Shown: piece by piece, positions 13,698-49,616 of the stretch
How positions within the stretch are numbered: the stretch's first letter is position 1
Layout: the number at the start of each line of letters is the position of its first letter
Assembly (NCBI GenBank): GCA_012513575.1
Contig: JAAZBX010000002.1
Span: 104,574 to 168,573, forward strand
DNA length: 64,000 bases
Origin: Candidatus Dojkabacteria bacterium
GTDB taxonomy: Bacteria; Patescibacteriota; Dojkabacteria; SC72
Direction of reading: 5' to 3'
Notes under the pieces: model-generated
Told to the model about the DNA's origin: nothing
What the model saw: the letters and a program-made list of their open reading frames with translations, nothing else
The model's database searches: none
Translations under genes and position numbers: made by a program

Positions 13698-14324
13698 TTA
13701 AAGCGAAAGAAGTAGCACAACGATAATACCAAGCACCATAAATGGAACAAAGGGTATTTTTAATCCCTTAAACCTCTTTTTCTTGTAAGCAAGTATCAAA
13801 CCATAGATTAAAGCAGTAAAGATAGTAATATATAGCCAAAGTATTAAATTACTACTCCCAATTAAAAGACCACAGATAATTGCAATCCTAACATCTCCTT
13901 GTCCTAGTCCTTTCTCTTTAGTAATTACAACAATCAATTGAAATATCAGACCTAATATAATAGCTCCAATTAAATTCTCATAAGGGAGATAGAAGTAATT
14001 TCTTGTTACTTCAAGTCCCCAAGTACTTCCTTTAACTAGAAAAAAAGAGACATTCAAAAGTAAGAGGGTGATAATTAGATAAAGAGACACCTTTTGATCT
14101 ACCTCCATCGTTTTGAAATCCTTTAATGCGAGAAAGAGGAGCAGGGTAAATATGAGAAGAAGAATCAAAAGGATAAATACTGTTTTAAAAGAACAGGTGG
14201 AATTGAGAAGGACTTTAAAGCTTGCAAAAAGCTGTACTAGAATAAATACTGTGATACTTATGATCTCTTCGATTTTTAATTTCTCTTTAAATATTTGAAA
14301 TTTCAAATGGGTCCGAATTAACAT
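13698..14324 (-). CDS. pilD: Prepilin peptidase (A24 family, short form)
   Basis: It is polytopic with the A24 signature GLGQGDVRIAIICGLLIG. It sits at the end of the pilus operon. Confidence 0.7.
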   Translation of the reverse strand: MLIRTHLKFQIFKEKLKIEEIISITVFILVQLFASFKVLLNSTCSFKTVFILLILLLIFTLLLFLALKDFKTMEVDQKVSLYLIITLLLLNVSFFLVKGSTWGLEVTRNYFYLPYENLIGAIILGLIFQLIVVITKEKGLGQGDVRIAIICGLLIGSSNLILWLYITIFTALIYGLILAYKKKRFKGLKIPFVPFMVLGIIVVLLLSL

Positions 14325-17061: not shown

Positions 17062-17515
17062 ATTCTATCAACCCCTCCTCATTTATACTTACTTTAACTG
17101 ATTGCGAACCTATTCCAACATATATGTTTCCAAAAGATACTGGCTTGAAAGAGTCATTTGGGAAGAGAATTGAGTTATCAGTTGTTAATGCTGTTGAAGA
17201 AATATATGTGTTTTTAGGAAGAACTTTTTCGTCTTTTTCTGTTCCTGTATCAAAGGAGTCCCCATCAAAAAGGTAATATCTTCCGTTGGTAAAATATATC
17301 CCTGTTGAGATATTTTTGCTTTTTGCTCTTTGTTGTTGATAGTAGATATCGGAAGCTATCTGAGAAGCGTACCCCTTTATCTTTGATTTTTGGACATTTC
17401 CAAGAGTTGTAGGGAATGTTAATGCCGAAATTAGAAGTAAAAGCCCCAGAGTAAGGATAATTTCAAGGAGAGAGAAGCCTTTCAAATCTTTTGTTTTTAA
17501 TTTTTTCCTAACCAT
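17054..17515 (-). CDS. Minor pilin (prepilin-type N-terminal cleavage/methylation domain)
   Basis: The N-terminus is MVRKKLKTKDLKG|FSLLEIILTLGLLLLIS, with Glu at +5. Confidence 0.6.
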   Translation of the reverse strand: MVRKKLKTKDLKGFSLLEIILTLGLLLLISALTFPTTLGNVQKSKIKGYASQIASDIYYQQQRAKSKNISTGIYFTNGRYYLFDGDSFDTGTEKDEKVLPKNTYISSTALTTDNSILFPNDSFKPVSFGNIYVGIGSQSVKVSINEEGLIEYE

Positions 17516-18707
17516 TGATAGTACCCATTAATTGATAGATTGGCATGAGAACAGTAATTCCCAGACCCCCAATTATTGCTCCTACCAAAATTAGAAGAAG
17601 AGGTTCTACGAATGTAACAATATTGTTGCTCATTTCAGTTACTTCTTCTGAGTAGAATTCGTGAAGGTACATGAGATTATCTTCCAAAGAGCCACTTACC
17701 TCACCGATATCCACCATTTTTACGAAAGAGGTGTTGAAATATTTAGGATATTCAGCAAGTGAGATGGAGAGATCTTTCCCATCATGGATACTTTGGTGTA
17801 TTTCTTTTAAGATCCCTGCATAGATGGAATTACTTGTCGTGGCAGAAGCGATTTCCATTGATTGCTCTAGAGGAATTCCACTTGCTAGAAGGACGCTTAA
17901 TGTCCTTGAAAAGGAAGCAAGAATGTTTGCGATAAAGAGTTTTTTGAGGATTGGGAAATGTATTGCAAGCCATCCGAGGAATTTTTTACCAGATTTTGTT
18001 TTAAGATAAAGAATAATTAAGGTAATAATGACTGCTAATATTGCAAATATATACATCCAATTTGTTCTAATGAACTTTGAGGCGCTCATTATGAAGAGAG
18101 TGAATTTAGGAATATTCTCAAAAGCCTCAAACATTGTTTCAAGTTTAGGAAGAACGATAAAGATCATTCCAAGAAATTCCATTAGAGTCATTCCCACAAT
18201 TATGACTGGGTAGATAATTGCTCCTTTGAGTTTTTTGTTTATCTCCCATTCTTTTTGAATTGTCTCCGCAACAAATATTAAGTTTTTTTCTAAGGAGCCA
18301 CCTTTCTCTCCAGCCTCGACAACAGAGGATATTGTTCTTGGGAATACTTTCGGAAATAGATTCATAGCTTTAGCCAAACTTACGCCTTTTTTTACTTCGT
18401 TGGATATATAGTCGTATATCTTATTTAAATTTTGATCACTTGATTGTCCAGAGATGGTCTCAATCGTTTCTGACAATGGGATTCCTGCTTTTAATAGGGC
18501 AGCTAGGGATTTAATTGAAATTAGTAGTGTAGGGACTTTAATCTTGTAACTCTGTAAAGTTTTTAGTAGCTTAGCTTTTTTCTTGTCCTCTATCTGAATT
18601 TGGCTTGTTTTTTCCTCCCCTATTGTCTCTTTGGTCTTAACGGCTTCTTCCTTTTTAACTTCTTCCACTAATTCTTCTTTTTTAGTTTGTTCCTTTTCTT
18701 CTTTCAT
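17508..18707 (-). CDS. pilC: Type IV pilus assembly platform protein PilC (GspF family)
   Basis: It has two GspF-type repeats (e.g. EAGEKGGSLEKNL and GEVSGSLEDNL) and three TM segments. Confidence 0.85.
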   Translation of the reverse strand: MKEEKEQTKKEELVEEVKKEEAVKTKETIGEEKTSQIQIEDKKKAKLLKTLQSYKIKVPTLLISIKSLAALLKAGIPLSETIETISGQSSDQNLNKIYDYISNEVKKGVSLAKAMNLFPKVFPRTISSVVEAGEKGGSLEKNLIFVAETIQKEWEINKKLKGAIIYPVIIVGMTLMEFLGMIFIVLPKLETMFEAFENIPKFTLFIMSASKFIRTNWMYIFAILAVIITLIILYLKTKSGKKFLGWLAIHFPILKKLFIANILASFSRTLSVLLASGIPLEQSMEIASATTSNSIYAGILKEIHQSIHDGKDLSISLAEYPKYFNTSFVKMVDIGEVSGSLEDNLMYLHEFYSEEVTEMSNNIVTFVEPLLLILVGAIIGGLGITVLMPIYQLMGTING

Positions 18708-20131
18708 TAATCTTTTATTGCAATAACTCTTATTAATTCTTTTATATCTATCATACCATCTGTTAATTTACTTACTGCATCTTCAACCATGAGTTTGAAG
18801 TCACCCTTTTTAGCTGTTGTCAGAATTGCATCCATTGAAGGGTTAGAAATAATGGTGTCCCTTAAAGGTTTATCTATATACAACAACTCATAGATTCCGA
18901 CTCTTCCAGAGTATCCAGTGTTGTTACATTTCTCGCAGCCTACAGCTTTGTAAAGTTTTTGAGAGGGTTTAACAAATTTCTGTAGGTCAGGTCGTAATTT
19001 AAGTAACTCTTTGTTCTCTTCATCTTTTTCTAGTACATACTCTTTTTTACACTCTTTACAAAGTCTTCTTGCAAGTCTTTGAGCTACAACAATATTCAAT
19101 GTAGAGGCTATCAGGAATGGCTCAATCCCCATATCCACAAGTCTTGGGATGGCACTTACGGAATCATTTGCGTGAAGAGTAGAGAGAACTAGATGGCCAG
19201 TTAATGCTGAGTTTACAGTAATTCTTGCGGTCTCAGTGTCTCTAATCTCTCCGACCATGATTACATTTGGATCTTGTCTTAGAATAGACCTTAATCCTGT
19301 GGCGAATGTTAAATCACTTTTCACATTTATCTGTATGTGGTTTACACCATCGATACTGTATTCAACAGGGTCTTCAATAGTGGTAATGTTAACCTCTCTA
19401 GTGTTTAGAATTTTAAGGATAGAGTAGAGGGTTGTTGTTTTCCCACTTCCAGTTGGGCCAGTTATGAGGATGAGTCCGTACGGTTGTCTGTATGATTTTT
19501 CTAGGAATTCTAAATCATGGTTACTGAAACCTAAATCAGACATAGAGTACGACTTATTGGCTTGAGTGAGCAACCTTATTACAACTTTCTCACCAAAAGT
19601 CACAGGCAATATTGATACTCTTGCATCAACATTGTATGTGTCTTTTTCTAGAGATTGAAATGCCTCTAAACGGTTTAATGTCTTTTTGATTTCCTTTTCT
19701 TTCTCTTTTTCTTCGTCTTTACCCCATCTGCTCTTTTTTGGCTTCTCTTCCTCTTTTGTCTCTTCTGCTTCTTTTTCTTCTTCCTCTTTCTCGTTCTCTT
19801 CCTTGGATATTGGTTCTCCATCGATTAAGGATTTTTTGAATTCAAAAGGAATTTTTCCATCCTGAGGTGTTAGATGAACATCTGTTCTTAACTTAGCTCT
19901 TACTTTGATAATAAAGAGTAAGCTTTCTTTTAATTCTGGGCCAATGGAAATTGTGTCTCTTAGTACACCATCAACTCTGTATCGTACTAAAAGTGCATTG
20001 TCTTCTTTTGACTCTATGTGAATATCAGAAGCTCTGCTCTTTAGGGCATCTAGGATTAAAGCATCAAGAAAGTCAGATATATTAATCTTCTTCTTGAGCA
20101 CATCATCCATTAATTCTAGTAGTTCAATCAT
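18707..20131 (-). CDS. pilB: Type IV pilus assembly ATPase PilB (GspE family)
   Basis: It has the Walker A motif LITGPTGSGKTTTL, Asp and His boxes, and a tetracysteine motif (CKECKK...CEKCNNTGY). Confidence 0.9.
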   Translation of the reverse strand: MIELLELMDDVLKKKINISDFLDALILDALKSRASDIHIESKEDNALLVRYRVDGVLRDTISIGPELKESLLFIIKVRAKLRTDVHLTPQDGKIPFEFKKSLIDGEPISKEENEKEEEEKEAEETKEEEKPKKSRWGKDEEKEKEKEIKKTLNRLEAFQSLEKDTYNVDARVSILPVTFGEKVVIRLLTQANKSYSMSDLGFSNHDLEFLEKSYRQPYGLILITGPTGSGKTTTLYSILKILNTREVNITTIEDPVEYSIDGVNHIQINVKSDLTFATGLRSILRQDPNVIMVGEIRDTETARITVNSALTGHLVLSTLHANDSVSAIPRLVDMGIEPFLIASTLNIVVAQRLARRLCKECKKEYVLEKDEENKELLKLRPDLQKFVKPSQKLYKAVGCEKCNNTGYSGRVGIYELLYIDKPLRDTIISNPSMDAILTTAKKGDFKLMVEDAVSKLTDGMIDIKELIRVIAIKD

Positions 20132-20200: not shown

Positions 20201-20632
20201 CTATCTTCTTACTGAAATTACTTTTCCCTCTGCCCTTGGAGCAGCAATCTGAATCCTTGTACCTACTGTACAAATTGTGTAGCCAGTAATAGCATCTGTT
20301 CCATTTGTTGGATCTGTTGGGATTGAGACAATGTAGTCTTGATCCTCAGCTGTTAGAATTGTGAGGTCAATACCCTCCGTACCAATCGATGAAGGACCAT
20401 CAACATCGTCACATGATTTTATTCCTTCTGGGAGCTCATTCCTATCAGTTGTGTACTGTGTAACCGCATTTAGGATTGAGTTCACATCTGAGCTCCTCTG
20501 TGCATTTCTAGTATCCTTGAAGTTCTTTCCAGGATTGATAGCAACAATTGTTATTGTAGCAAGAATGATGATCAATGCTACAACAACAAGGATCTCGATA
20601 AGTGAGAAGCCCTCGTATCTTTTTCTACTCAT
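20201..20632 (-). CDS. pilA: Type IV major pilin (PilA-like)
   Basis: The N-terminus is MSRKRYEG|FSLIEILVVVALIIILATITIVA. Two C-terminal Cys residues are consistent with a D-region disulfide. Confidence 0.75.
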   Translation of the reverse strand: MSRKRYEGFSLIEILVVVALIIILATITIVAINPGKNFKDTRNAQRSSDVNSILNAVTQYTTDRNELPEGIKSCDDVDGPSSIGTEGIDLTILTAEDQDYIVSIPTDPTNGTDAITGYTICTVGTRIQIAAPRAEGKVISVRR

Positions 20633-20709: not shown

Positions 20710-21537
20710 TTACTTAGCAAAATCTAAACTTCCAAGAATTGAATCTAAAGCAGTAAGTTCCTCTTCACTTGCATCTTGAGAAATCCACACATTAAAAAGT
20801 GGCACAGGACTTACTTCTTCAAGCCCTTTTAGTACTAACCAGTTACTTTCACATTGAGCCTCAAAAGTATTAGTACTTCTATCAGTATCATAGAATACTT
20901 TGGTTTCAACTCTTCTGAGTTCTGTACCAAACAGAGAGATCTCAGAATATTTTGTGTCTGTATAGTCAAGGACATTAGCTTGTATTCCGATTTCTTCATT
21001 TTGTTGATTCTGTTTCTCTTCAAAGTCTTCTGGGGAGTCTTTAAAAAGAACAATTTGAGAGCATCCTACACTCCCAACCCCATCAAGTATTTCAAGTCTA
21101 AAGATATTCTTGCTTTCGTGAGAGATCTCAAATTTTGTCAACCCACTATACTGAACCCCTTCGGTAACCATGTCGCTTTCTTCCCCATTTTTAAACTCTT
21201 TAATACTCCATCCTTGTGGTATTTCTGTGGTAAGATACTCACCTTGAAATTTTACTAATTCAGGTTCCTTTACAGTTTCTTCTTCTTTCTTTTCTTCCTC
21301 TTCTTCTATAGTATTGGTGGGGTTCTTTTCTGTAAAGTATCCTTCCTTAATAAAGATGTAAGTTCCCATTGCAATAACAGCAAAAAACAATATGAAGATT
21401 ATTACCATTAACCCTTTATTACCCTTTGTCTTCTTCTTCTCAACCTCGGCAATTGCTTCCTCCCCAGCTATGTTTACTTGATTATTCTCCTTAACAATCG
21501 TACCGTCCAAAGGAGTATTATTTGAATTCTCGTCCAT
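20710..21537 (-). CDS. Hypothetical membrane-anchored acidic protein
   Basis: It has a single N-terminal TM helix followed by a Glu-rich linker. Confidence 0.35.
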   Translation of the reverse strand: MDENSNNTPLDGTIVKENNQVNIAGEEAIAEVEKKKTKGNKGLMVIIFILFFAVIAMGTYIFIKEGYFTEKNPTNTIEEEEEKKEEETVKEPELVKFQGEYLTTEIPQGWSIKEFKNGEESDMVTEGVQYSGLTKFEISHESKNIFRLEILDGVGSVGCSQIVLFKDSPEDFEEKQNQQNEEIGIQANVLDYTDTKYSEISLFGTELRRVETKVFYDTDRSTNTFEAQCESNWLVLKGLEEVSPVPLFNVWISQDASEEELTALDSILGSLDFAK

Positions 21538-21586: not shown

Positions 21587-22645
21587 TTGGGATATGGTAA
21601 AATAATAAGCTATATTATTTTTTACAGCATTCATTTGAAAAAATTACTCATAGGAATTCTTTTTGTTTTGCTTTTTCCGATTCCTTCTTTTGCAAAGGAG
21701 CAAGTAACTCTTTTTTGGGGGGTCACATGTCCATACTGTCATACAGTAAGAGAAAAAATTTCTGAAGAGAAACTAGATGAGAAGATAGATATTGTTGAAA
21801 TTGAGCTACAGGAAAACAAGGAGAACTTACCTAAGTTTGAGGAAAAAATTAAAGAGTGTAATATTAATCCTCAGCAAGCGGGGATTCCAATGCTTTTTGT
21901 TGATGGAAAATGCTATCAAGGAGTTGACCCCATAATGGAAAAACTAAACGGTATGGTTGAAGGAAAAGATGTCAATGGCTCAATTGAGGAAATAGATTTG
22001 GTTGAAGGCAAAAGAAATACAGAGATAATGATTGGAATTGTATCTCTTTTTCTTGTTGTGCTCGTTTTGTTCGGATACTACAGACAGAATATGAAGACAA
22101 GCAGAAAGAAAGATGCAAAAAAATCAAAAAAGGTATACACCTTAATATTGTTTTTGCTAGCTCCTTTGTTTTTTGCTTCCAAAACATACGCCATATGTCC
22201 ACTATGTACCATCGCTGTGGGCGCAGGAGTAGGATTCTCAAGATCATTGGGTATAGATGATCTAATTGTAGGACTTTGGGTCGGAGGTCTTCTTGTTTCT
22301 AGTAGTATGTGGCTTTTCGAATGGCTAAAATCTAAAAAGATTGCAAAGAAGCACACTGAGACATATTGGGCTTTTGGTGCTGCAACGTTAATGTTTGCTC
22401 TAACTCTCATACCTCTAAAGATGGCAGGTATTATTGGTCATCCTTTTAACAAAATGTTTGGAATAGACAAGGTTTTGCTAGGGGTAGTAATTGGGAGTGT
22501 TGTATTTTTTGCTTCGGGGAGATTACACTTTTACCTCAAGAGTAAAAACAAGGACCAAGTATATTTCCCTTATCAAAAAGTTGTAATACCTGTTGGAGCG
22601 TTGTGGTTGACTACAATTATCTTGTATTTAATAGTATACTATTAG
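21587..22645 (+). CDS. Exported glutaredoxin-like domain (CPYC) fused to a polytopic membrane domain carrying a CPLC motif; putative thiol-disulfide oxidoreductase
   Basis: It has a signal peptide, a Grx-like active site (WGVTCPYCH) and the Grx motif GIPMLFVDGKCYQG. At least five TM helices follow, with CPLC at the start of a helix. Confidence 0.5.
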   Translation: MGYGKIISYIIFYSIHLKKLLIGILFVLLFPIPSFAKEQVTLFWGVTCPYCHTVREKISEEKLDEKIDIVEIELQENKENLPKFEEKIKECNINPQQAGIPMLFVDGKCYQGVDPIMEKLNGMVEGKDVNGSIEEIDLVEGKRNTEIMIGIVSLFLVVLVLFGYYRQNMKTSRKKDAKKSKKVYTLILFLLAPLFFASKTYAICPLCTIAVGAGVGFSRSLGIDDLIVGLWVGGLLVSSSMWLFEWLKSKKIAKKHTETYWAFGAATLMFALTLIPLKMAGIIGHPFNKMFGIDKVLLGVVIGSVVFFASGRLHFYLKSKNKDQVYFPYQKVVIPVGALWLTTIILYLIVYY

Positions 22646-22662: not shown

Positions 22663-23115
22663 TTGTTTATGCCAAAAGGAAAAAAAGTAACTGCCGAGGA
22701 TGTGAACAAATTGGTTGAGAAGTATGATGCTTTAAAAAAAGATGAGAAGCTTGATTTGTCTGCCGATGAAGATTTGTCTATTGCAATCATGAACCTCATT
22801 TCAATCGAAGAGCATTTGTTCTTTAGTGGCGGGAAAACAGGAAATAGTAAGTATTATGAACTTCTAAATGAGGTAAGAGATATGAGGAAGGGATTGCTTA
22901 AGAAAATTATCAAAGAGTATGAGGGAGAGGTATGGTGTATTTCTAAGCATCTTCTTGCAAGTAGCTACCGACTTATGGAATATGGTACTAAATGCTTGGG
23001 AAGAGGAAAGAACAAGGAGGCCTACGATATGTTTGAGAAAGCATACAACTTGTATTCTCTGTTTTGGGCTTTGAATATGGGAGTTATTAATCTAAGTGAA
23101 GTTAAAGAGGCGTAA
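22663..23115 (+). CDS. Hypothetical cytoplasmic protein
   Basis: It is a 150-aa ORF with no motif. Confidence 0.3.
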   Translation: MFMPKGKKVTAEDVNKLVEKYDALKKDEKLDLSADEDLSIAIMNLISIEEHLFFSGGKTGNSKYYELLNEVRDMRKGLLKKIIKEYEGEVWCISKHLLASSYRLMEYGTKCLGRGKNKEAYDMFEKAYNLYSLFWALNMGVINLSEVKEA

Positions 23116-31581: not shown

Positions 31582-33318
31582 CTACCAACTTCCACCTCCA
31601 CCTCCTCCTCCACCTCCACCACTTGAGCCACCACTAAAACCACTCCCTCCACTACTAAAACTGCCACCTGAATCAACAGGAGTTGCTATTGTGGAACTAA
31701 TATTCGATACAGAGTTCAAAAGTACCATACTATTAAATGTAGACATATCTCCTGTGTACCAATCTGGAGGGGTAGTGTAGAGGTCTTTAAACTCATTCAT
31801 CCACTTCTTCTCTAAACCAAATAATATGGCATAAGGAAGGAGAGACTCGAAAACACCTCTAAACTTATCTGGATCATTGTGAAATTCAATCCTATGCTTC
31901 TCTGCTGTATTTATATACATCTTAAGACCCAGAAGTTCATAGTAAGCATCATTCCCTTTCTCTGATCTAAAATCCCAGAAAACGGAGATAATAAAAATCG
32001 AGATACCGGTAACAAATAAAGATAATGCAGCAAAAATTGAACCATTAACAAGCATTAATGCAAGGGCCACAGGAGCACCACCTAATGATAAGATACCTAA
32101 AAACGCCAATAATAATCCTTTTTTAGTCTTCTTCTCATCTACAAACCCATTATTTACAGCATCTAATCGTGTTTGCTCCCAAATCGTAGGACCATAGCCA
32201 TATAGATTAGACGTTTTACTCTTTGTACTAATTTCATCTAAAGAACCAAACAACAAATCAAAAAGCTTTTCAGATGAAGGATGGGGAATTATTGGTTCAA
32301 GAATAGTCTTACGCAAAATATACTCTTTCCTTTTCTTTTGCTCTATATCAATAAATCTCTGAATAGCTAAATAGATAATCTCTGCAGTGATATATTTACT
32401 TCTAAGTCGTCCTTTCGATAGTAAATAACTGGCTACAAGTGGATTTAAACCTTTCGGAGGGGTAAAAGATGGTGCTACAGTTTTTTTACGGCTTTTGAGC
32501 TTAGAACCAAATAGGTAGAAGAGAGGAATAAGAAGAAGCGAAGATGAATACAGTATATTATTTCTTTTAATATTTTCATTCTCTTTTTCTAGGACATCAA
32601 CAATAGAACCCTTTGGCATTGATACGGCTATTGTAATAGCCTCATTTTCTCTTAGTGGTGCGGTATTGGTTAATAGAAGAGAGGTGTCGGACTCTTTTGT
32701 AATTTGGCAATTAGTACCTGTAGAGCCATAAACTCCGGTATAGCAAACTGTATCCTGAATTACTCCTGGAACATTTATCTTTGCCTCGACGCTGTTAATT
32801 GGAACTGTCCATCCAGTACCAATTATGTTCCAATACAGTTCGTCATGGTCTTCAAAATAGTTTATTCCGTTTTTCACGGTATAGTCGATCTCATAAATAT
32901 AAAGACCAGTAATTGTCCTATCTGCATCTCCAATTCTTAAAACGACTTCATCGTTAAGATTTACCTCTTTAGAATATGAATTGCCAATACTAGCAGGGCT
33001 ATCGCTAGGGTAATACAAGATTGAGTTTATTTTGATGCTAGTAGGTGTTTTGAGACGGTTCCCTTCACTTCTTTTGTTAATAGGGACATTTCTATATATT
33101 CCATGCTTTGGGGTTGAGAAGTAGTAGTGAATCCTCTCTTTTATCCTAATATCTGAATTTGTTTGAAGAGATAAACTGATTTCAAACTTCTCAACTACCT
33201 CAGGCTTATATACAGAGGGGGAGTTAGTAATCTGAGGATTTTGCCCATATGCTAAGGAGGGTATGAATAAACCTACAGAAAAAATAATACCTAAAAATAT
33301 TAGCAGTATTTTCTTCAT
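31582..33318 (-). CDS. DUF2207-family membrane protein with a C-terminal Gly/Ser-rich tail
   Basis: It has a signal peptide, a beta-rich ectodomain, TM helices, and ends ...GGSGFSGGSSGGGGGGGGGGSW. It is paired with LemA. Confidence 0.6.
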   Translation of the reverse strand: MKKILLIFLGIIFSVGLFIPSLAYGQNPQITNSPSVYKPEVVEKFEISLSLQTNSDIRIKERIHYYFSTPKHGIYRNVPINKRSEGNRLKTPTSIKINSILYYPSDSPASIGNSYSKEVNLNDEVVLRIGDADRTITGLYIYEIDYTVKNGINYFEDHDELYWNIIGTGWTVPINSVEAKINVPGVIQDTVCYTGVYGSTGTNCQITKESDTSLLLTNTAPLRENEAITIAVSMPKGSIVDVLEKENENIKRNNILYSSSLLLIPLFYLFGSKLKSRKKTVAPSFTPPKGLNPLVASYLLSKGRLRSKYITAEIIYLAIQRFIDIEQKKRKEYILRKTILEPIIPHPSSEKLFDLLFGSLDEISTKSKTSNLYGYGPTIWEQTRLDAVNNGFVDEKKTKKGLLLAFLGILSLGGAPVALALMLVNGSIFAALSLFVTGISIFIISVFWDFRSEKGNDAYYELLGLKMYINTAEKHRIEFHNDPDKFRGVFESLLPYAILFGLEKKWMNEFKDLYTTPPDWYTGDMSTFNSMVLLNSVSNISSTIATPVDSGGSFSSGGSGFSGGSSGGGGGGGGGGSW

Positions 33319-33325
33319 TCCGTAT

Positions 33326-33871
33326 TTAGAATTTTACCTCAACATTCTTCTGTTCCTCTTGGGACGCTTCAAAGAAATCTACTTTCTTGTATCCGAAGAG
33401 CTGAGCAATTAGATTGGTTGGGAATACAACAAGGGATGTATTGAAATCTCTTGCAGCACCATTGTAGTACCTTCTGGATTTCTGAATTCCTTCTTCAAGC
33501 TCTTTTAAGGTTGTTTGAAGTTGAATGAAATTGGTATTGGCTTTTAAGTCTGGATAGTTTTCTGCAACAGCAAAGATTTTTGAGATAGCACTGGTTAGTC
33601 CCTCTTCTAGTTTCATTTTCTCAGGGAGAGTACCTGCAGACATTGCTTTTGTCCTCATTTCAGTAACCATTGCTAACGTAGCACTTTCATGTTTTGCATA
33701 TCCTTTAACCATCTCAACAAGGTTTGGTATCATGTCGTATCTTTGTTTGAGAAACGTTTCAATATCTGAGGAAGCCTCTTCTACCATAACCTTTAATTTC
33801 GCAAGTTTATTGTAGATTCCAATAAAGGCGAGAAATAGAACAGCAACCACACCTAAGATTCCGTATAACAT
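33326..33871 (-). CDS. lemA: LemA family protein
   Basis: It has an N-terminal TM helix and the LemA signature (KLKVMVEEASSDIE...YYNGAARDFNTSLVVFP). Confidence 0.85.
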   Translation of the reverse strand: MLYGILGVVAVLFLAFIGIYNKLAKLKVMVEEASSDIETFLKQRYDMIPNLVEMVKGYAKHESATLAMVTEMRTKAMSAGTLPEKMKLEEGLTSAISKIFAVAENYPDLKANTNFIQLQTTLKELEEGIQKSRRYYNGAARDFNTSLVVFPTNLIAQLFGYKKVDFFEASQEEQKNVEVKF

Positions 33872-38441: not shown

Positions 38442-38789
38442 ATGATGATTAATATTTTTCTTACAATTAATAATTTTTTGGTTCAAAGAGCATATGCGCA
38501 GAGTATAGGGGCAAGCTTAGAAGAGGGTTTGTCTGTTGATTCTGACACCAACGTGGATAGCTTGTTAGAAAGAATTGTGAGGATAGCTGTTCCTGTTGCA
38601 GTTATTTCAGCATTTGTTCTTCTGTCTTATGGGGGATATTTGCTAATCTCAAGTCAAGGGAATCCAGATAAATTGCAGGAAGCAAGATCTATTATTACCA
38701 ATGCAATTATCGGACTTTTAGTTGTTGTCCTTTCAGTAGCTATACTTTTGATAATTAGTGGGACTTTTGATTTAAATATATTTAATTAA
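38442..38789 (+). CDS. Small VirB2/TrbC-like T4SS-pilin-family membrane protein, paralog 1 of 6
   Basis: It has a signal-like N-terminus and a hairpin of two hydrophobic helices joined by the conserved loop YLLISSQGNPDKLQEA...IIGL. Confidence 0.55.
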   Translation: MMINIFLTINNFLVQRAYAQSIGASLEEGLSVDSDTNVDSLLERIVRIAVPVAVISAFVLLSYGGYLLISSQGNPDKLQEARSIITNAIIGLLVVVLSVAILLIISGTFDLNIFN

Positions 38790-38794
38790 AAAAT

Positions 38795-39100
38795 ATGGTA
38801 AACATTTCAAGACTTCTATCAACATTTGGATTGGCCTCACTTGATGGGAATACTGATAATATAGATAGTGTATTAGAAAACAAAATCAAGCCTGGTTTGA
38901 ACTGGATAGTCGCAATGGCAGTGGTTGCTGCTGTGGCTATGATTATTGTCGCAGGGTATAACCTAATCACTTCTAACGGAGATCCCGAAAAGATACAAAA
39001 GGGAACAAAAGGTATAACAGCAGCGATCATTGGTCTGGTAATTGCTTTCTCTGCAAGAATAATCTTAGTGTTTATTTTAGAGAAATTAGGTCTTCAATAG
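38795..39100 (+). CDS. Small VirB2/TrbC-like T4SS-pilin-family membrane protein, paralog 2
   Basis: Its conserved loop is AGYNLITSNGDPEKIQKG...IIGLV. Confidence 0.55.
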   Translation: MVNISRLLSTFGLASLDGNTDNIDSVLENKIKPGLNWIVAMAVVAAVAMIIVAGYNLITSNGDPEKIQKGTKGITAAIIGLVIAFSARIILVFILEKLGLQ

Positions 39101-39164
39101 TATTGTTTTTTAAATTATACTATTGTACTATTTGTTAGGCTTAAATAAATTAATTCATTACTAA

Positions 39165-39515
39165 ATGAAAAGTTTAAAATATTCTTTGACCCCGATTTTG
39201 TTTGGTTTGTTTCTCCCCTCAGCGGTTTTTGCAGACGGAATAATTACTGGTATCCTTCCAGAGGGTCCTAATACAACAATTCCAATTTTAATCAAAACAG
39301 TTTTGAATTTTGCCATTGGATTTGCAGTTGTTGTTTGTGTCGCTATCTTAATCTTCGCAGGCTATTCATATATGACAGCAAATGGTGATGAAGACAAAAT
39401 CCAGAAAGCAACAAAATCCTTAACATGGGCAATCATTGGATTGGTAGTATGTTTTGTTGCAATTCTCTTAGTAAGATTTGTAGGGGAAAAGATTGGAATT
39501 GATTTTGGAGCTTAA
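39165..39515 (+). CDS. Small VirB2/TrbC-like T4SS-pilin-family membrane protein, paralog 3
   Basis: It has a signal peptide (AVFA|DG) and the conserved loop AGYSYMTANGDEDKIQKA...IIGLV. Confidence 0.55.
   Translation: MKSLKYSLTPILFGLFLPSAVFADGIITGILPEGPNTTIPILIKTVLNFAIGFAVVVCVAILIFAGYSYMTANGDEDKIQKATKSLTWAIIGLVVCFVAILLVRFVGEKIGIDFGA
39297..39515 (+). repeat. Nucleotide-level duplicated block, copy A (3' two-thirds of pilin paralog 3)
   Basis: It is about 93 percent identical to 39781-40000 by eye alignment. It starts at the shared ...CAGTTTTGAATTTTGC... and runs to the stop codon. Confidence 0.7.
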
Positions 39516-39649
39516 GACTTTATTCAAGAGCAATTGACATTTCTTCACGACATCGGAGTGTTCTTTATTAACCACTCTTGTTGAATTCCTAATATTGTTA
39601 TTATATAATGAGCATTAAGATAATTAATATTAAATAAATAATTAAAACA

Positions 39650-40000
39650 ATGAAGATTTCAAAATTATCGGTTGCTCCAATTTATTTGGCTATGGCAAAT
39701 GCGACTGCGGTATATGCAGATGCTTCTGGATTTCTTCCAGACGACCAGACCGGAGGGAAAACACTCCCAGGAATTATCCAGACAGTTTTGAATTTTGCTA
39801 TTGGATTTGCAGTTGTTGTTTGTGTTGCCATCTTAATCTTCGCAGGCTATTCATACATGACAGCAAATGGAGATGAGAACAAAATCAAGAAAGCTACAAC
39901 ATCTTTAACATGGGCAATCATTGGATTGGTAGTATGTTTTGTTGCAATTCTCTTAGTAAGATTTGTAGGAGAAAAGATTGGAATTGGTTTTGGAGTTTAA
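39650..40000 (+). CDS. Small VirB2/TrbC-like T4SS-pilin-family membrane protein, paralog 4
   Basis: It has a signal peptide (AVYA|DA). Its C-terminal 72 aa are nearly identical to paralog 3. Confidence 0.55.
   Translation: MKISKLSVAPIYLAMANATAVYADASGFLPDDQTGGKTLPGIIQTVLNFAIGFAVVVCVAILIFAGYSYMTANGDENKIKKATTSLTWAIIGLVVCFVAILLVRFVGEKIGIGFGV
39781..40000 (+). repeat. Nucleotide-level duplicated block, copy B (3' two-thirds of pilin paralog 4)
   Basis: It matches 39297-39515. The 5' thirds of the two genes, which encode the mature N-terminal region, are unrelated. Confidence 0.7.
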
Positions 40001-40036
40001 GAAATCCATTGAATAAGATATAAGAATACATTCGGA

Positions 40037-40309
40037 ATGGAATGGTTAAGTTTTGTTGAAAAGTTTAATAGGGTGGAGTTCTCCTCATTGCAAGATTTTA
40101 TTGCGAATCTGTTTAATGTTGCAATGTCATTTTCAGTAGTTATTGTGGTAATTGCATTAATCATAGCTGGCTTCAAATATATGTTTTCTAAAGGAGATGG
40201 AGACAAGGTAAAGGAGGCGACTAGGAGTTTAATCTTTGCCCTTATCGGTTTGGTAATTGTATTTCTTTCTCCAACTATTGTAAAATTTGTGATAGATAAA
40301 TTTCTTTAA
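40037..40309 (+). CDS. Small VirB2/TrbC-like T4SS-pilin-family membrane protein, paralog 5
   Basis: Its conserved loop is AGFKYMFSKGDGDKVKEA...LIGLV. Confidence 0.5.
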   Translation: MEWLSFVEKFNRVEFSSLQDFIANLFNVAMSFSVVIVVIALIIAGFKYMFSKGDGDKVKEATRSLIFALIGLVIVFLSPTIVKFVIDKFL

Positions 40310-40316
40310 TTAAGAA

Positions 40317-40640
40317 ATGTCAAAAAATTTAAATAGAACTATTCTGCTACTTACTTCTCCTTTTCTTTTCATCTCGAAGGTATATGCTGAGGATCCTCCA
40401 GAAATTAATGCTGAAACTATCGACAAATTAATAAATACCATTACTAGTAGATTGCTTCCAATCGCTGGTCTGTTGTCATTCATATTCATCGTTTACGGAG
40501 CATATATGTGGATAATATCTGCTGGGGATCCAGATAAAATTAAAAAAGCTCAGGGTACTTTACAGTGGTCAATTATCGGCCTTATCTTTGTAATTATCGT
40601 CTCCCTTATCCTCAGGGCAGTTCTTGATGCAGTTGCATAA
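40317..40640 (+). CDS. Small VirB2/TrbC-like T4SS-pilin-family membrane protein, paralog 6
   Basis: It has a signal peptide (KVYA|ED) and the conserved loop YGAYMWIISAGDPDKIKKA...IIGL. Confidence 0.55.
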   Translation: MSKNLNRTILLLTSPFLFISKVYAEDPPEINAETIDKLINTITSRLLPIAGLLSFIFIVYGAYMWIISAGDPDKIKKAQGTLQWSIIGLIFVIIVSLILRAVLDAVA

Positions 40641-41053: not shown

Positions 41054-42931
41054 ATGAAAGGTATGCCCCAATTCAAAAAAACTTTATTTATCTCTATCAC
41101 TTTACTTTTAGGAATTTTCCTCTTTTTCAATTCTCCAGTATATTCCCAATCAGTTTCAGATCTTGAAAAAGAGATAGAGGAAAGTAATAGGGCAATTTCA
41201 GAGAAAGAGAGTATTTTAGGAAATATTGAGAAGAGGATAGCGGAGATAAAGGGAGGAAATCAAACTTTAAGTCAGAAGATTCAGTTGATGACTGATGAGA
41301 TTAATAAGGTTAAGGATACAATTTCACAAAAAGAGATAGAGATTGAAACAAAGGGTAAGGAGATTGAGAGTAAGCAAGAGCAGCTTAATATTCGAAAAGA
41401 AACTTTAGATTTAGTTTCGGCTGAGTTGTATATGGAGACAAGGAATAGGGTGTCAACCTTTTTCCTTTCAGATTGGTCTGATTTAGTAAGAAACTTTTAC
41501 CTTAAAAGAAATATAGTTTCTGATTTGAGACATCAGGTTGAGATGATTAGTGGAGAGTTTAGTTCTTTAGCTGAGGCAAAGGAGTTGTTAGATTCTGAGA
41601 AGAGTCTTTTAGATACACAGAAGAAGGAGTTGGATGATTCCTTGGGTATTTTAGCAACAGAGAAAGCAAAGTTACAGGCAGAACTTAGTAAGCAGTATGC
41701 ACAGAAGGGGAGTTTGAGTTCAGAGATTACAGATTTAACAAAGAAGGTATCTCAATTACAGGCGGCATTGATAGCAGCAAGAGGGGCTGGAACTATATCT
41801 TCGGGGGGTAGTACGGGGACTGTTCCTGGGACTTCGATTTCTCAAGCACCAGCAGGCTATTTTGGAGTTTTCTCTATTGGTGCATATACGCATAGAAACG
41901 GTATGAGTCAGTGGGGAGCGAGGGCGAGGGCTGATGCAGGACAATCTACAGGACAGATACTAAGCTTTTACTATCCTAACACAAGAATCTCAAATGGTGT
42001 AGTTAATTCTAATGGAATTCCCCAACCTTTAATGCAGAATATTAATGTGAATAATGTAGGTACTCTTTCATTTGAGGATTACTATCTATTGGGTATACAG
42101 GAGATGCCGGAGAGTTGGAATATGGAAGTATTGAAAGCCCAAGCAATTGTTGCTAGAACCTACGCCGTGTGGTACGTTAACAATGGGAATGGAAGATGGG
42201 TAAACAAAACTCTTGTTAACTCTATTTGCACATCCCAGAGTTGTCAAGTATTTAATACCCCACTCAAAGCTGGGGCTTGGAGAACCGCTGTACAGCAAAC
42301 AAGAGGGCAAATTTTGACAGACTCAAGTGGATCTGCAGTAATGGCTGAATATGCAGCTGTACATGGAGCATGGGGGAATTGGCAGGGGCAAGCTACAGGT
42401 TGGGACACACAGAGTGGAAGTGGAGATAATTGGTTTACCGATGCTTGGGATAAAATTTCTGGTGTTAACTGGTTTTATAGATCTTGGTATATCAATGGAT
42501 CTGGTTATTCTGGAGAAACATGCGGACATTCACCATATCTTTCTCCATCAGAAATGTTAATCATTCTTAATGCCTATTATGTAAAGAAAGGTGAGGGTTT
42601 AAGGATGACTCCCGATTTGTCAAGATTGCTTCCAAGCGATTATGGGAAGTGCCCAGGAGGAGCAAGGGATGATGACTTCGGTCGAACAGACAAAGTCCCA
42701 TACAGTTTATCTGAATTACAGGGATTGTTATCAAATCCAGTAACATCTATATCCTCTGTATATGCTTCCTTTGCTAACGGACAAACCACAAATGTATATT
42801 TTCAAACAAATAGAGGCCTTATATCAATGTCCGGCTTTGCCTTCAAAGATATATACAATCAAATGGCTCCAGGTCATATGAGAATACAACAACAATCTTC
42901 CTATGCTTTCTTCAATATAGAAAAGAAATAG
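41054..42931 (+). CDS. Secreted coiled-coil protein with a C-terminal SpoIID/LytB-like peptidoglycan-remodelling domain
   Basis: It has a signal peptide and about 200 aa of coiled coil (an EnvC-like N-terminus). The SpoIID-like block is LKAQAIVARTYAVWYV. Confidence 0.55.
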   Translation: MKGMPQFKKTLFISITLLLGIFLFFNSPVYSQSVSDLEKEIEESNRAISEKESILGNIEKRIAEIKGGNQTLSQKIQLMTDEINKVKDTISQKEIEIETKGKEIESKQEQLNIRKETLDLVSAELYMETRNRVSTFFLSDWSDLVRNFYLKRNIVSDLRHQVEMISGEFSSLAEAKELLDSEKSLLDTQKKELDDSLGILATEKAKLQAELSKQYAQKGSLSSEITDLTKKVSQLQAALIAARGAGTISSGGSTGTVPGTSISQAPAGYFGVFSIGAYTHRNGMSQWGARARADAGQSTGQILSFYYPNTRISNGVVNSNGIPQPLMQNINVNNVGTLSFEDYYLLGIQEMPESWNMEVLKAQAIVARTYAVWYVNNGNGRWVNKTLVNSICTSQSCQVFNTPLKAGAWRTAVQQTRGQILTDSSGSAVMAEYAAVHGAWGNWQGQATGWDTQSGSGDNWFTDAWDKISGVNWFYRSWYINGSGYSGETCGHSPYLSPSEMLIILNAYYVKKGEGLRMTPDLSRLLPSDYGKCPGGARDDDFGRTDKVPYSLSELQGLLSNPVTSISSVYASFANGQTTNVYFQTNRGLISMSGFAFKDIYNQMAPGHMRIQQQSSYAFFNIEKK

Positions 42932-47114: not shown

Positions 47115-49616
47115 ATGTATTCAGAAGATATTTATGCACAAGTATTTGGACCTACGCTAGGGGATTCGGGTAGCGAAACATCTACCAGGTACAAAGATAA
47201 TTCCTATGATACTTTCGATATGGATATTCCTTGGGGGTGGATTTCTTTCTCTATTGTTCTAATTGCTCTTGTTGTATTAGGCTTTTTGTATATAAAAAAG
47301 AATCTCAAGAAGAAGGATAGAAATGAAAAAGCGAGTGATGGTATTCTAATGGAAATTCGGGTACCTAAAGGCAATGAAGTAGAGATAGGATCAGCAGAAA
47401 AGATGTTTGCAAATCTTTATGGTATTGGAGGAAAAGCAGATGGGATAGCCGAGAAATTTAGTGTAAGTAACTGTGTCACTTTCGAAATGGTAGGATTGCC
47501 GGGAGAAATACGCTTCTTTGTTCATTGTCCTAGGAAATATGCAGATATGGTTGAGAAACAAATACTTGGCTCATATCAAGATGCAGATGTCTCTGTTGTA
47601 GACGAATATAATATATTTGCCCCGAAATCAGAAATTGCATATGCGAGGCTTGTATTAGACGAGGATTCATATGCCCCGATAAGAACAGCTGAAAGCTTTA
47701 CTGGCGATCCTATGGCAAATGTTCTTAGCACATTGAGTAAAATGTCTGAACAGGAGGGTGCGATTGTTCAACTTGCTGTTGCTCCTACTGACAATCGATG
47801 GCAGAAGAATGGTAGTGGGTTTGTTCAGAACATTGAAAAAAACAATTCTGATCCAGAAAAAAAGAAGATAAATGTCCCTCAAGAGAAGATACAAGCGATA
47901 AACAAGAAAATCTCTAAGCCTGGATTAATCTCAGAGATTAGAGTAGTTACTAGTGCTCCAACTAAGGAATTTGCAAAAATGCATTTAGATAATATTCTTG
48001 CTGCTTTTGATCAATATTCTAATCCAGGAATAAACAAGTTGAAGAAGAAAAAGATAAAAGATAGTGAAGAGATGTCTTTTCTTTACGATGTAATTTATAG
48101 AAGGACACCTGAGAGTGAGAAAAGTATTCTTAATATTGAAGAATTGGCTGGTTTGTACCACTTCCCAAACAAGGAAATTACAACACCAAATATTTTTTGG
48201 CTTCTTTCTAAAGAGCTTCCAGCAGGGAATGAGATAAGTTCGGATATAAATTCAAGAGACGCAATTTGGCTTGGGAATAACTATTTCCGAGGGAAAAGAA
48301 AGATGATTTGCTTCCAAAGAGATGACCGAAGAAGGCATGCGTACATTTTGGGACAAACAGGTACAGGGAAATCATGGTTGATGGTTAGAATGATGATTCA
48401 AGATATTTATAATGGTGATGGATGTTGTTTTATTGATCCTCACGGTTCAGCAGCTGAGATGCTTTTAGAGAGGATTCCACCTGAGAGGGCAGAGGATGTT
48501 ATCTATTTTAATGCTGCCGATTTTGACAGGCCATTTGGGTTGAATATTATGGAATTCTATAACGAGCAACATAAGCATCAAATTGTAAACAGCTTCTTAG
48601 CTTTGTTAATAAGATTGTTCGATCCAAATAATCAGGGGTATGCTGGGCCTGCTTTCCAGCAAGCAGTTAGAAACTCAATGCTTACAGCCATGTCTAAGCC
48701 AGGTTCTACATTGGTTGAAGTTGTGAGAATTCTTCAGGACGAAGAATGGGTCATGAACTACTGGTTACCCTTAATTAAAGATGAAATGGTACTTGGATAT
48801 TGGACTGACCAGGTAGCGAAGACGGATAAGAAGACAAAGGCTGAGTCATTGACTTACTTTATTTCTAAATTCGATAAATTTACAACAAACTTAGCCATTC
48901 GAAATATTATTGGTCAATCAGAATCATCTTTTGATTTTAGAAAGATCATGGATGAAGGAAAGATTCTCATTGTAAATCTTTCAAAAGGTTTGATAGGGGA
49001 TGAAAATATGTCTTTTCTTGGTTTGTTGATTGTTCAGAAACTTTTAGCTGCTGCTTTGAGTAGAGAGAACATCCCAGAAGAGGAGAGGAAGGATTTCTTT
49101 TTCTATGCAGATGAGTTCCAGAATTTTGCTACGGAGGAGTTTAATTCAATTCTTTCAGAGGCAAGGAAATATAGACTGAATTTGACACTAGCACATCAAT
49201 ATATTGGACAACTTCCAGAGGATATTAAGAATGCAGTTTTTGGAAATGTTGGTTCTCTCTTTATTACAAGGTGTAGTCCTGAAGATGCACAGTTCCTAGA
49301 GACTCCGTTTGAAGGGTATGTGACAGCTTCAGACATAGTCAATCAGTCGATGGGGCATTGGTATACCAAACTCCTTAATAACGGCTCGTATCCCTCTCCT
49401 TTCTCATTGGTAAGTTCGTATGGCCCGAAGTTTCCTGATTCGGGGTTTGATTTGCCAGTAAACAAAGAAGTTACAGGCATTATTAAGGAGATGTCTAGGA
49501 GAAAGTATGGTAGAGATGTAAATGTTGTTGCTAATGATATCCGCACTAGAGCTCAGCTTGATAGGAAGGAAGAGCAAGCTCAGAATCCAGCCCCTGGATT
49601 TCCCCCAATCTTTTAG
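47115..49616 (+). CDS. Membrane-anchored VirB4/TrbE-like or TraD/TrwB-like ATPase of the FtsK/HerA superfamily
   Basis: It has an N-terminal TM helix, a mid-protein Walker A motif (ILGQTGTGKSWLMV), a DPHG block (CFIDPHGSAAE) and a Walker B motif (FYADEFQNF). Its 833-aa length and the Walker A position fit VirB4. Confidence 0.55.
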   Translation: MYSEDIYAQVFGPTLGDSGSETSTRYKDNSYDTFDMDIPWGWISFSIVLIALVVLGFLYIKKNLKKKDRNEKASDGILMEIRVPKGNEVEIGSAEKMFANLYGIGGKADGIAEKFSVSNCVTFEMVGLPGEIRFFVHCPRKYADMVEKQILGSYQDADVSVVDEYNIFAPKSEIAYARLVLDEDSYAPIRTAESFTGDPMANVLSTLSKMSEQEGAIVQLAVAPTDNRWQKNGSGFVQNIEKNNSDPEKKKINVPQEKIQAINKKISKPGLISEIRVVTSAPTKEFAKMHLDNILAAFDQYSNPGINKLKKKKIKDSEEMSFLYDVIYRRTPESEKSILNIEELAGLYHFPNKEITTPNIFWLLSKELPAGNEISSDINSRDAIWLGNNYFRGKRKMICFQRDDRRRHAYILGQTGTGKSWLMVRMMIQDIYNGDGCCFIDPHGSAAEMLLERIPPERAEDVIYFNAADFDRPFGLNIMEFYNEQHKHQIVNSFLALLIRLFDPNNQGYAGPAFQQAVRNSMLTAMSKPGSTLVEVVRILQDEEWVMNYWLPLIKDEMVLGYWTDQVAKTDKKTKAESLTYFISKFDKFTTNLAIRNIIGQSESSFDFRKIMDEGKILIVNLSKGLIGDENMSFLGLLIVQKLLAAALSRENIPEEERKDFFFYADEFQNFATEEFNSILSEARKYRLNLTLAHQYIGQLPEDIKNAVFGNVGSLFITRCSPEDAQFLETPFEGYVTASDIVNQSMGHWYTKLLNNGSYPSPFSLVSSYGPKFPDSGFDLPVNKEVTGIIKEMSRRKYGRDVNVVANDIRTRAQLDRKEEQAQNPAPGFPPIF

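Follow-up and report, generated by a model that had tools for sequence, protein, structure and literature searches.

Introduction

Among the described systems for handling cysteines outside the cytoplasm, an exported protein of the thioredoxin (Trx) fold together with a membrane thiol partner is, as a kind of system, already known. DsbB is a bundle of four transmembrane (TM) helices with two essential cysteine pairs in two periplasmic loops. VKOR combines a cysteine pair in a loop with a CxxC motif that starts the last core helix, and its fused Trx domain is C-terminal. DsbD and CcdA carry one cysteine in each of two repeated halves, and the envelope thiol systems of metal stress, DsbD-DsbC/G and ScsB-ScsC, are reductive and draw on the cytoplasm. 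MauE has been reported as a membrane oxidase with a single cysteine motif (CXC), for which ubiquinone docking has been predicted (preprint 10.64898/2026.03.05.709764). Here we compare with these systems a gene on the plus strand, at positions 21587 to 22645 of a 64,000-nucleotide stretch of DNA (the window) from Candidatus Dojkabacteria bacterium (contig JAAZBX010000002.1 of assembly GCA_012513575.1), which encodes an exported glutaredoxin-like (Grx-like) domain followed by a membrane domain with a second CxxC.

Our analysis indicates that this gene is a "Rosetta-stone" fusion of two partners, called A and B below, which belong with a third gene, C, to a module A-B-C. The module is a widespread cysteine-based one of candidate-phyla-radiation (CPR) bacteria and has no public name; the fused gene, which we write A~B, is called at most a "glutaredoxin domain-containing protein" in public records. 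Literature searches on the module, on Dojkabacteria redox proteins and on CPR disulfide systems returned no description of B or C. What is new is the membrane and the cytoplasmic component, the domain order with its adaptor, and the linkage to arsenic-resistance (ars) and metal genes.

The A-B-C module

Four loci with a stand-alone B were inspected first, and when their neighbouring genes were translated, A, B and C were found tightly packed and co-directional. A census with local hidden Markov models (HMMs) covered 86 loci. A is present, either fused or directly upstream, in 66 of 85, C immediately follows B in 79 of 84, and A and B are fused in 15; three loci selected through C instead of B again have the order A-B-C. 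Since the two halves of the window gene are separate, adjacent and co-directional genes in other lineages, we read it as a fusion of functional partners. This bears out the first-pass annotation of the window, which had paired an exported CxxC domain of the Trx fold with a membrane partner that also carries CxxC. That annotation described the A~B gene well but overlooked C, which starts 17 bp past the A~B stop codon in the same direction and shares 59-62% identity with the gene that follows B in Parcubacteria-type loci. The features of the window copy, all on the plus strand, are the following.

21587-22645, plus strand: fused A~B open reading frame, 352 residues counted from TTG 21587
21635-21694, plus strand: likelier start TTG 21635 and Sec signal peptide MKKLLIGILFVLLFPIPSFA, from homolog alignment and direct reading
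21695-21961, plus strand: part A, Grx/Trx-fold domain, residues 37-125
21728-21739, plus strand: CPYC active site, residues 48-51, read from the sequence
21857-21859 and 21911-21913, plus strand: extra invariant cysteine pair of part A, C91 and C109
21887-21889, plus strand: cis-proline P101, within GIPMLFVDGKCYQG
22019-22135, plus strand: adaptor, made of helix TM-a (residues 145-166, out to in) and a basic loop (residues 167-183)
22136-22192, plus strand: helix TM-b (residues 184-202), the part B signal peptide kept, ending T-Y-A202
22193-22645, plus strand: part B proper, residues 203-352, elsewhere a stand-alone family of ~170 residues
22196-22207, plus strand: CPLC, residues 204-207, preceded by Ile within AICPLCTIAVG, at the start of a Gly-rich short helix
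22250-22261, plus strand: LGIDD turn of part B
22460-22471, plus strand: GIDK of the part B outer loop GHPFN...GIDK
22565-22582, plus strand: inner-loop motif FPYQKV of part B
22663-23115, plus strand: part C, cytoplasmic four-helix protein, 150 residues (ATG 22669 also possible)

The n, h and c regions of the signal peptide are readable, and the hydrophobic N-terminus closes with SFA|K, so that cleavage is predicted after SFA36. Because most homologs begin at the aligned residue (MKK, as in MKKLLIG...), the in-frame TTG at 21635 is the likelier start. Altogether 63 homologs of A~B were found, and those that are full-length and carry a source name come from Candidatus Dojkabacteria. Over 23 full-length homologs, down to 38% identity, C48, C51, C91, C109, C204, C207 and P101 are invariant, which argues that the motifs are under selection rather than due to chance. 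An AlphaFold2 (AF2) model made with 23 homologs (mean predicted local distance difference test score, pLDDT, 80) has a Trx fold followed by helices at residues 138-172, 182-195, 205-220, 225-249, 255-279, 295-320 and 330-351, with CPLC exactly at the N-terminus of helix 205-220. Between them, sequence and model recover everything that had first been read from this gene, namely a signal peptide, CPYC, the cis-proline segment, at least five TM helices and AICPLCTIAV at a helix start. A promoter and terminator scan gave 9 promoter-like sites against 7.7 expected.

Some loci of the collection stand apart. In a Dojkabacteria metagenome-assembled genome (L053:5001-6510) a stand-alone B is preceded by an overlapping gene for a 311-residue DsbA-like protein, and no C gene follows; this protein, at the position of A, has the site CPYG with a single cysteine. 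Many loci (L020, L022, L024, L035, L038-L042, L045, L076 and others) have titles such as "uncultured Gammaproteobacteria", "Bdellovibrionales" or "beta proteobacterium" and carry a typical CPR-type A-B-C, so that either the module extends beyond the CPR or the automatic labels are unreliable.

Comparison with described systems

Searches of B against Pfam models of DsbB (PF02600), VKOR (PF07884), DsbD/CcdA (PF02683, PF13386) and MauE (PF07291) gave no match at E≤10, and those of the module against MerT and MerP/HMA (PF00403) gave none either. The same tools score genuine DsbD_2/ArsG proteins encoded nearby at 67-295 bits and readily detect HMA in a neighbouring P1B-ATPase. In the structural comparison DsbB, VKOR, DsbD and MauE did not match A~B, and no VKOR structure stood among the matches listed. 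B has one cysteine pair against the two of DsbB, lacks the loop cysteine pair of VKOR and carries CPxC against the CXC of MauE, and the domain order of A~B is the reverse of that in VKOR-Trx fusions. The likeness to VKOR-Trx and DsbB/DsbA modules, which had been proposed together with the remark that the motifs differ, is thus reasonable as a statement about function and fails as one about family membership. The closest functional analogies of B are Trx-fold/membrane-thiol pairs in general.

As in DsbA-DsbB and VKOR-Trx, including the MdbA-VKOR pair of Actinobacteria and the system proposed for CPR bacteria, an exported Trx-fold CxxC protein is paired with a polytopic membrane protein whose CxxC stands at the N-terminus of a helix, by prediction on the outer face. 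In contrast to these pairs, with which there is no similarity of sequence or fold, B has a single cysteine pair and no quinone-site signature, the redox domain of A~B is N-terminal and joined through a two-helix adaptor, and the module has a third, cytoplasmic protein. The DsbD/CcdA/ScsB relays, which feed ResA, DsbC/G and ScsC and include ArsE-ArsG-ArsF, share with A-B-C its cytoplasmic, membrane and exported layers, the presence of only two membrane cysteines and an association with metal(loid) stress genes, and the exported domain of A~B has a CPYC-type site like that of DsbG. However, both cysteines of B lie on one helix as CPxC, the repeats of B are parallel rather than inverted, and C is a helical bundle instead of a thioredoxin. 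With MauE-MauD the module has in common a small orphan-type membrane protein with a single cysteine motif, proposed as the recycler of an exported Trx-fold partner, but MauE, with its CXC and predicted ubiquinone docking, is not homologous to B, and MauE-MauD has no cytoplasmic partner. The mercury relay MerP-MerT-MerA likewise has an outside CxxC protein and a small membrane protein with a cysteine pair in its first helix; the C-terminal vicinal CC of MerA recurs in the long form of C, and a metal(loid) gene context is common to both. Against this stand the lack of homology, the second, cytoplasmic cysteine pair of MerT, the Trx fold of A where MerP has a ferredoxin-like HMA fold, and the window copy of C, which has no CC. 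While the first-pass annotation had kept a heavy-metal or mercury transporter in view as the reading that would displace its own, we found no such homology, although the genomic context proved to be metal(loid)-related.

The three parts and their topology

Part A is a Trx-fold domain, similar to Grx and DsbA, whose active site reads CP[YH]C and which has a cis-proline. It has the CxxC at a helix N-terminus and the cis-Pro loop, and it matches Pfam Glutaredoxin (PF00462) over residues 40-109 with 27.0 bits against a gathering score of 22.9. Since the NCBIfam Grx equivalog models score far under their cut-offs (31 against 87), it is a Grx-like domain and no named Grx orthologue; the G-x-x-D that follows strand 4 is similar to the motif GGxDD of Grx. 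The DsbA family (PF01323) reached only E=0.08 and 13 bits, against a cut-off of 25.6 bits, over the N-terminal 44 residues, and the modelled domain of ~90 residues has no inserted helical domain. The stand-alone A, ~130 residues long and N-terminally anchored, is homologous to the N-terminal half of A~B and reads ...LFYGDGCPHC...IGVPFLWDGKKC.IG. It has CPHC in 46 of 50 copies, where most fused copies have CPYC, and of 65 copies of A, 45 have Val before the cis-proline and 13 have Ile (58 together); CPHC with Val-cisPro is a DsbA-like trait. Two further cysteines, present in 62 of 65 copies, likely form a structural disulfide, to judge from their conservation.

Part B is an orphan. A profile of the membrane domain collected no fewer than 1,894 clusters (90% identity), for the most part of ~170 residues. 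An exhaustive HMM search gave 579 representatives (50% identity), and the family occurs in 542 or more species-level genomes. The hits with a source name are all "hypothetical" or "uncharacterized", come mostly from Parcubacteria-type CPR lineages and have no Pfam domain of their own. B itself has no Pfam or NCBIfam match at E≤10 and no sequence relative in the PDB, profile searches giving only chance matches with E about 0.1. One stand-alone B reached 24.9 bits against the 24.4-bit cut-off of RseC/MucC through its Gly-rich helices, and since the others gave nothing we take this as compositional. Besides the short CPLC helix B has four TM helices. Its motifs, Ala at -1, [VIF]-C-P-x-C-[TAVI]-x-A-x-G-A-G, LGIDD, GIDK and FP[FY]QKV, hardly vary, if at all, among 45 diverse members and are all found in the window protein.

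In the stand-alone B the segment that corresponds to TM-b is an N-terminal signal peptide with n, h and c regions. The residue at -1, directly before [VIF]-C-P-x-C, is Ala in all 74 loci captured by the pattern and, by eye, in 12 others, and that at -3 is A, V, T, S or I in the 74, so that by its sequence B has a classical signal-peptidase I site (AxA-type) directly before the x-C-P-x-C core. A lipoprotein reading of the cysteine after the signal peptide can be ruled out, since one residue always separates Ala(-1) from Cys and there is no lipobox. In the fusion the end of TM-b is likewise an AxA-type site (T-Y-A202), and the signal peptide is kept as an internal helix, with possible cleavage there. 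It is preceded by a new out-to-in helix, itself preceded by a conserved G-K-x-N-T motif, and by a very basic loop, so that exactly two helices stand between the Grx domain and CPLC; L056 and L086, two divergent fused forms, share this adaptor. The mean number of Lys plus Arg per loop over the 23 homologs is 7.3 in the adaptor loop and 4.3 and 3.1 in the other loops assigned to the cytoplasm, against about 0-1.5 elsewhere, and the Grx domain of the fusion is net acidic. By the positive-inside rule and the two-helix adaptor, both the Grx domain and the CPxC would thus lie on the outer face, as the oxidative reading of the first-pass annotation had supposed.

B also contains an internal repeat, in which "...G.G.SR.LGIDD - TM helix - KKN" corresponds to "...GHPFN...GIDK - TM helix - K.KN" (hhalign P=3.8e-5, probability 71%). 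This places both GID turns on one side, outside, and both basic KKN loops on the other, inside, and the family may have arisen through duplication of a helical hairpin. The inner-loop motif FP[FY]QKV is a candidate docking site for C. A protein labelled Pacearchaeota (P0058) shows a partial internal duplication of B.

Part C belongs to a family of at least 8,000 sequence clusters and is more strongly conserved, with a mean column identity of 82% against 45% for B. In the stand-alone cassettes it is a soluble protein of ~177 residues with the segments ...DLSSDQDLSIAIMNLISIEEHFFF...EGEVWCISKHLLAASMRLME... It lacks a signal peptide, and its model is a four-helix bundle (AF2 pLDDT 75). The residues E49-E50-H51 and W91-C92-x3-H96 are invariant, and the long form ends in CC-x-E-COOH and nearly always has three cysteines (C92 and the CC). 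The window copy ends ...SEVKEA, and the CCxE tail is missing in 13 of the 15 fused, Dojkabacteria-type loci. C has no Pfam or NCBIfam match at E≤10 and no PDB relative, its profile too meeting only chance matches there, with E about 0.1. Readings as a zinc-binding anti-sigma (ZAS) or CsoR-like protein were set aside, given the absence of a family match, the different order of motifs and the lack of a recurrent sigma factor gene.

Genomic context

The window gene had been described as transcribed divergently from a pilus operon, and the operon does lie nearby on the minus strand, although the gene directly divergent from A~B is another one, for a 275-residue protein, with the pilin further away.

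20710-21537, minus strand: unannotated 275-residue N-terminally anchored protein, divergent from A~B, with two conserved cysteines
20201-20632, minus strand: pilin with an N_methyl match and two cysteines
18707-20131, minus strand: PilB
17508-18707, minus strand: PilC
13698-14324, minus strand: prepilin peptidase PilD

The pilin thus has the cysteine pair ascribed to it, and two further pilin-like proteins of the operon have no cysteine. Pilus genes lie upstream in 5 of the 14 fused loci with upstream sequence (the window, L006, L009, L010 and L012), all of them closer relatives, and the stand-alone family has no recurrent pilus link among 89 loci. The 275-residue neighbour, which has no Pfam match, is kept beside the fused gene in 8 of these 14 loci, including L028 and L049, where no pilus genes lie upstream. 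Both of its cysteines (G..GC and FE[PA]QC) are conserved in 7 of 7 homologs, and the protein may be a client or partner peculiar to Dojkabacteria.

Our survey of neighbours, with flanks of up to about 6 kb per side of 89 loci, shows instead that the module tracks arsenic- and metal-handling genes rather than pili. At least one ars-type or metal gene, often contiguous and co-directional, was found in 30 of the 89 loci, a count to be read against a rough estimate, below 10%, for chance adjacency. The neighbours were distributed as follows.

ArsP_1 permease: 11 loci of 89
ArsR: 9 loci of 89
MTH895/ArsE-family thioredoxin-like protein: 8 loci of 89
DUF134: 7 loci of 89
ArsF-family exported CxxC protein: 6 loci of 89
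ArsG-family DsbD_2 protein: 6 loci of 89
P1B-ATPase: 5 loci of 89
CDF: 5 loci of 89
ZIP: 3 loci of 89
MntP: 3 loci of 89
ABC-3: 1 locus of 89

The ArsF, ArsG and ArsE assignments are above the curated NCBIfam cut-offs. Ars operons have previously been noted to contain CcdA, thioredoxin-like proteins and ArsP (PMC2963123), and for ArsEFG PMC9144182 cites the 2019 description by Chen, Zhang and Rosen. One of the more distant fused homologs (L008) lies inside the array ArsR-ArsE-ArsP-[A~B]-C...ArsF-ArsG. In L042:5112-5963 and L077:5223-6011, A carries an extra N-terminal ArsF-family CxxC domain (ArsF~A), in the operon order ArsR-ArsE-[ArsF~A]-B-C-ArsG-...-ArsP. The window cassette has no ars or metal genes beside it on the fetched sequence. 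In another locus (L091:2189-2566), a gene for a 125-residue 2x[4Fe-4S] ferredoxin-like protein lies between ArsG and A-B-C; its best NCBIfam similarity, well under cut-off, is to HgcB-type ferredoxins.

Among the cysteine-containing exported or anchored proteins of the window, the number of cysteines is even in 7 of 7, against 7 of 22 cytoplasmic ones (15 odd; Fisher p=0.002), and exported or anchored proteins in general have 0, 2, 4 or 6 cysteines after the anchor. This pattern suggests systematic extracytoplasmic disulfide formation in the organism. It means that exported disulfides are made and does not indicate which system is responsible. No VKOR, DsbB or DsbD was found among the polytopic membrane proteins scanned, a search that was confined to the 64-kb window and did not cover the rest of the genome.

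Some other observations concern the window at large. Towards its N-terminus the PilB/T2SSE ATPase (18707-20131, minus strand) carries an insert of ~40 residues, EENEKEEEEKEAEETKEEEKPKKSRWGKDEEKEKEKE, that is highly charged and of low complexity. The genes for LemA and DUF2207 form a pair at 31582-33871 (minus strand), and such a pair also stands immediately upstream of the fused gene in L007, one of the more distant homologs, a hint that local synteny has been rearranged among Dojkabacteria. On the plus strand (38442-40640, 41054-42931 and 47115-49616) there is a run of six small proteins of 90-116 residues with two hydrophobic segments each, followed by a diacylglycerol kinase, a SpoIID-domain protein and a VirD4/TrwB-like coupling ATPase. 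The small protein at 39165-39515, the only one of the six that was scanned, matches T4SS_pilin (PF18895), and these genes together look like a type IV secretion or conjugation-like cluster.

Discussion

We propose, as the best reading and with a probability of roughly 40%, that A-B-C is a thiol-disulfide relay at the cell surface that is linked to the cytoplasm. In this scheme A and the CPxC of B would exchange a disulfide at the outer face of the membrane. From that exchange it would follow that B is the dedicated recycling partner of A, the fusion simply tethering the pair. B would in turn be coupled to C through its conserved cytoplasmic loops, linking surface thiol chemistry to the cytoplasm. 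Electrons may then pass from C to B to A, in a manner resembling DsbD/CcdA to DsbG/ScsC, and such an outward pathway would keep exposed cysteines reduced, or repair them, under stress by thiol-reactive metal(loid)s. That A and B exchange thiols within the module is the part of the scheme in which we place most trust, and we consider it probable; the exchange combined with an outward, reductive flow is a tentative proposal, and the exchange in the service of an oxidase, the pilin-specific version included, seems to us rather unlikely. On direction we lean slightly towards outward over inward flow, because of the near-obligatory cytoplasmic partner C, because ArsF~A fusions occur beside a CcdA-type protein, because of the ArsR-type and metal context, and because we know of no cytoplasm-linked thiol relay that is not reductive.

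A number of observations weigh against the proposed relay. A is absent beside B in about 22% of loci. B, with its single cysteine pair, has no recognisable cofactor site, and prediction places its CPxC at the outer surface or slightly beneath it, from where no route to the cytoplasm is apparent; moreover, the model is at its weakest in the membrane domain just there, with pLDDT of 49-69 for residues 191-220, which include the CPxC helix. CPHC with Val-cisPro is a DsbA-type oxidising signature. The Dojkabacteria form of C, without the CC tail, is left with a single invariant cysteine, which weakens a dithiol relay through C in those organisms. Finally, the metal association is a count set against an estimated, not a measured, genomic background.

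How else could the conservation of this module be explained? In a general oxidase of the DsbA/DsbB kind, A would donate disulfides to exported proteins and B would re-oxidise A, passing the electrons to a scavenged quinone or to C, as a non-homologous analogue of DsbB, VKOR and MauE. The active-site signature of A would then be as expected, as would its apparent structural disulfide and the even cysteine counts of exported window proteins; a DsbA-like protein takes the place of A in L053, the work on MauE implies that one cysteine motif can suffice, and where both stand in the same operon an oxidising arm would complement the CcdA-type set ArsE-ArsG-ArsF. We nevertheless find this unlikely, since it leaves unexplained the near-obligatory C, which a DsbB-like oxidase would not need, and since B lacks both a quinone-site or cofactor signature and any similarity to DsbB, VKOR or MauE. 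The ArsF~A fusions, moreover, point to A working in series with a domain fed by CcdA, and CPR bacteria have already been proposed to use MdbA-like proteins with VKOR to make disulfides (PMC6744442). The narrower version of the first-pass annotation, in which the gene would serve solely the oxidative folding of the type IV pilins encoded beside it, has in its favour the divergent position beside a complete pilus operon, which four close relatives share, and the two cysteines of the major pilin. The wider comparison does not support it: pilus synteny is limited to those few fused loci, the constant partner of the module is C and no pilus gene, two pilin-like proteins of the operon have no cysteine to oxidise, and the 275-residue neighbour persists in two loci without pilus genes. 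We regard a pilin-specific role as very improbable.

The genomic context lends itself to another explanation, by analogy with MerP-MerT-MerA, in which the dithiols of A, B and C would bind and pass on, or sense, a thiophilic metal(loid), such as As(III), organoarsenicals, Cu(I), Zn or Cd, without disulfide exchange. The 30 loci in or beside ArsR/ArsE/ArsF/ArsG/ArsP-type operons or genes for P1B-ATPase, CDF, ZIP, MntP or ABC-3 would fit, as would the dispensability of A next to a conserved core of B and C and the conserved Asp, His and Asn in the outer loops of B beside CPxC. The three cysteines of long-form C recall the As(III) sites of ArsR and ArsD, which are built from three sulfurs, and also the CC at the C-terminus of MerA. 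But no part of the module is homologous to MerT, MerP, HMA, ArsD or a transporter family, A retains the cis-proline and Grx-type layout typical of thiol-disulfide exchange, and Dojkabacteria C, the window copy included, has no CC tail. The neighbouring transporters span Zn, Mn, Cu and As, which fits a general role in thiol stress better than the handling of one metal, and the window cassette adjoins no ars or metal genes on the fetched sequence. On balance a metal(loid) relay appears to us an unlikely but genuine alternative. One could also imagine that B and C act in transmembrane sensing or signal transduction, or in another way outside redox chemistry, with A tuning the sensing cysteines of B. 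That C is far more conserved than A or B suggests contact with conserved cellular machinery, B has no cofactor site, and modules often stand beside regulators (ArsR, DUF134); however, C has no DNA-binding or signalling domain and no downstream partner recurs in the loci, and we think such a role highly unlikely.

Returning to the proposed surface thiol relay, the significance of the module lies in the organisms that carry it. The association with pili was tempting, and our analysis corrects this case of guilt by association as a lineage-specific one. A large part of bacterial diversity belongs to the CPR, whose members grow attached to other cells and rely on their surface proteins; the majority have neither respiratory chains nor quinone synthesis. 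A-B-C is a concrete and clonable candidate for the way in which they manage extracytoplasmic cysteines or thiol-reactive metal(loid)s, and the A~B fusion of the window offers a ready-made minimal construct. If the relay reading, to which we give the probability stated above, is right, the module would be an unrecognised transmembrane thiol conduit built on two orphan families, to be placed beside DsbB, VKOR/MauE and DsbD/CcdA. Such a conduit would work without a recognisable quinone or thioredoxin and may couple the surface cysteines of CPR bacteria to the cytoplasm under metal(loid) stress.

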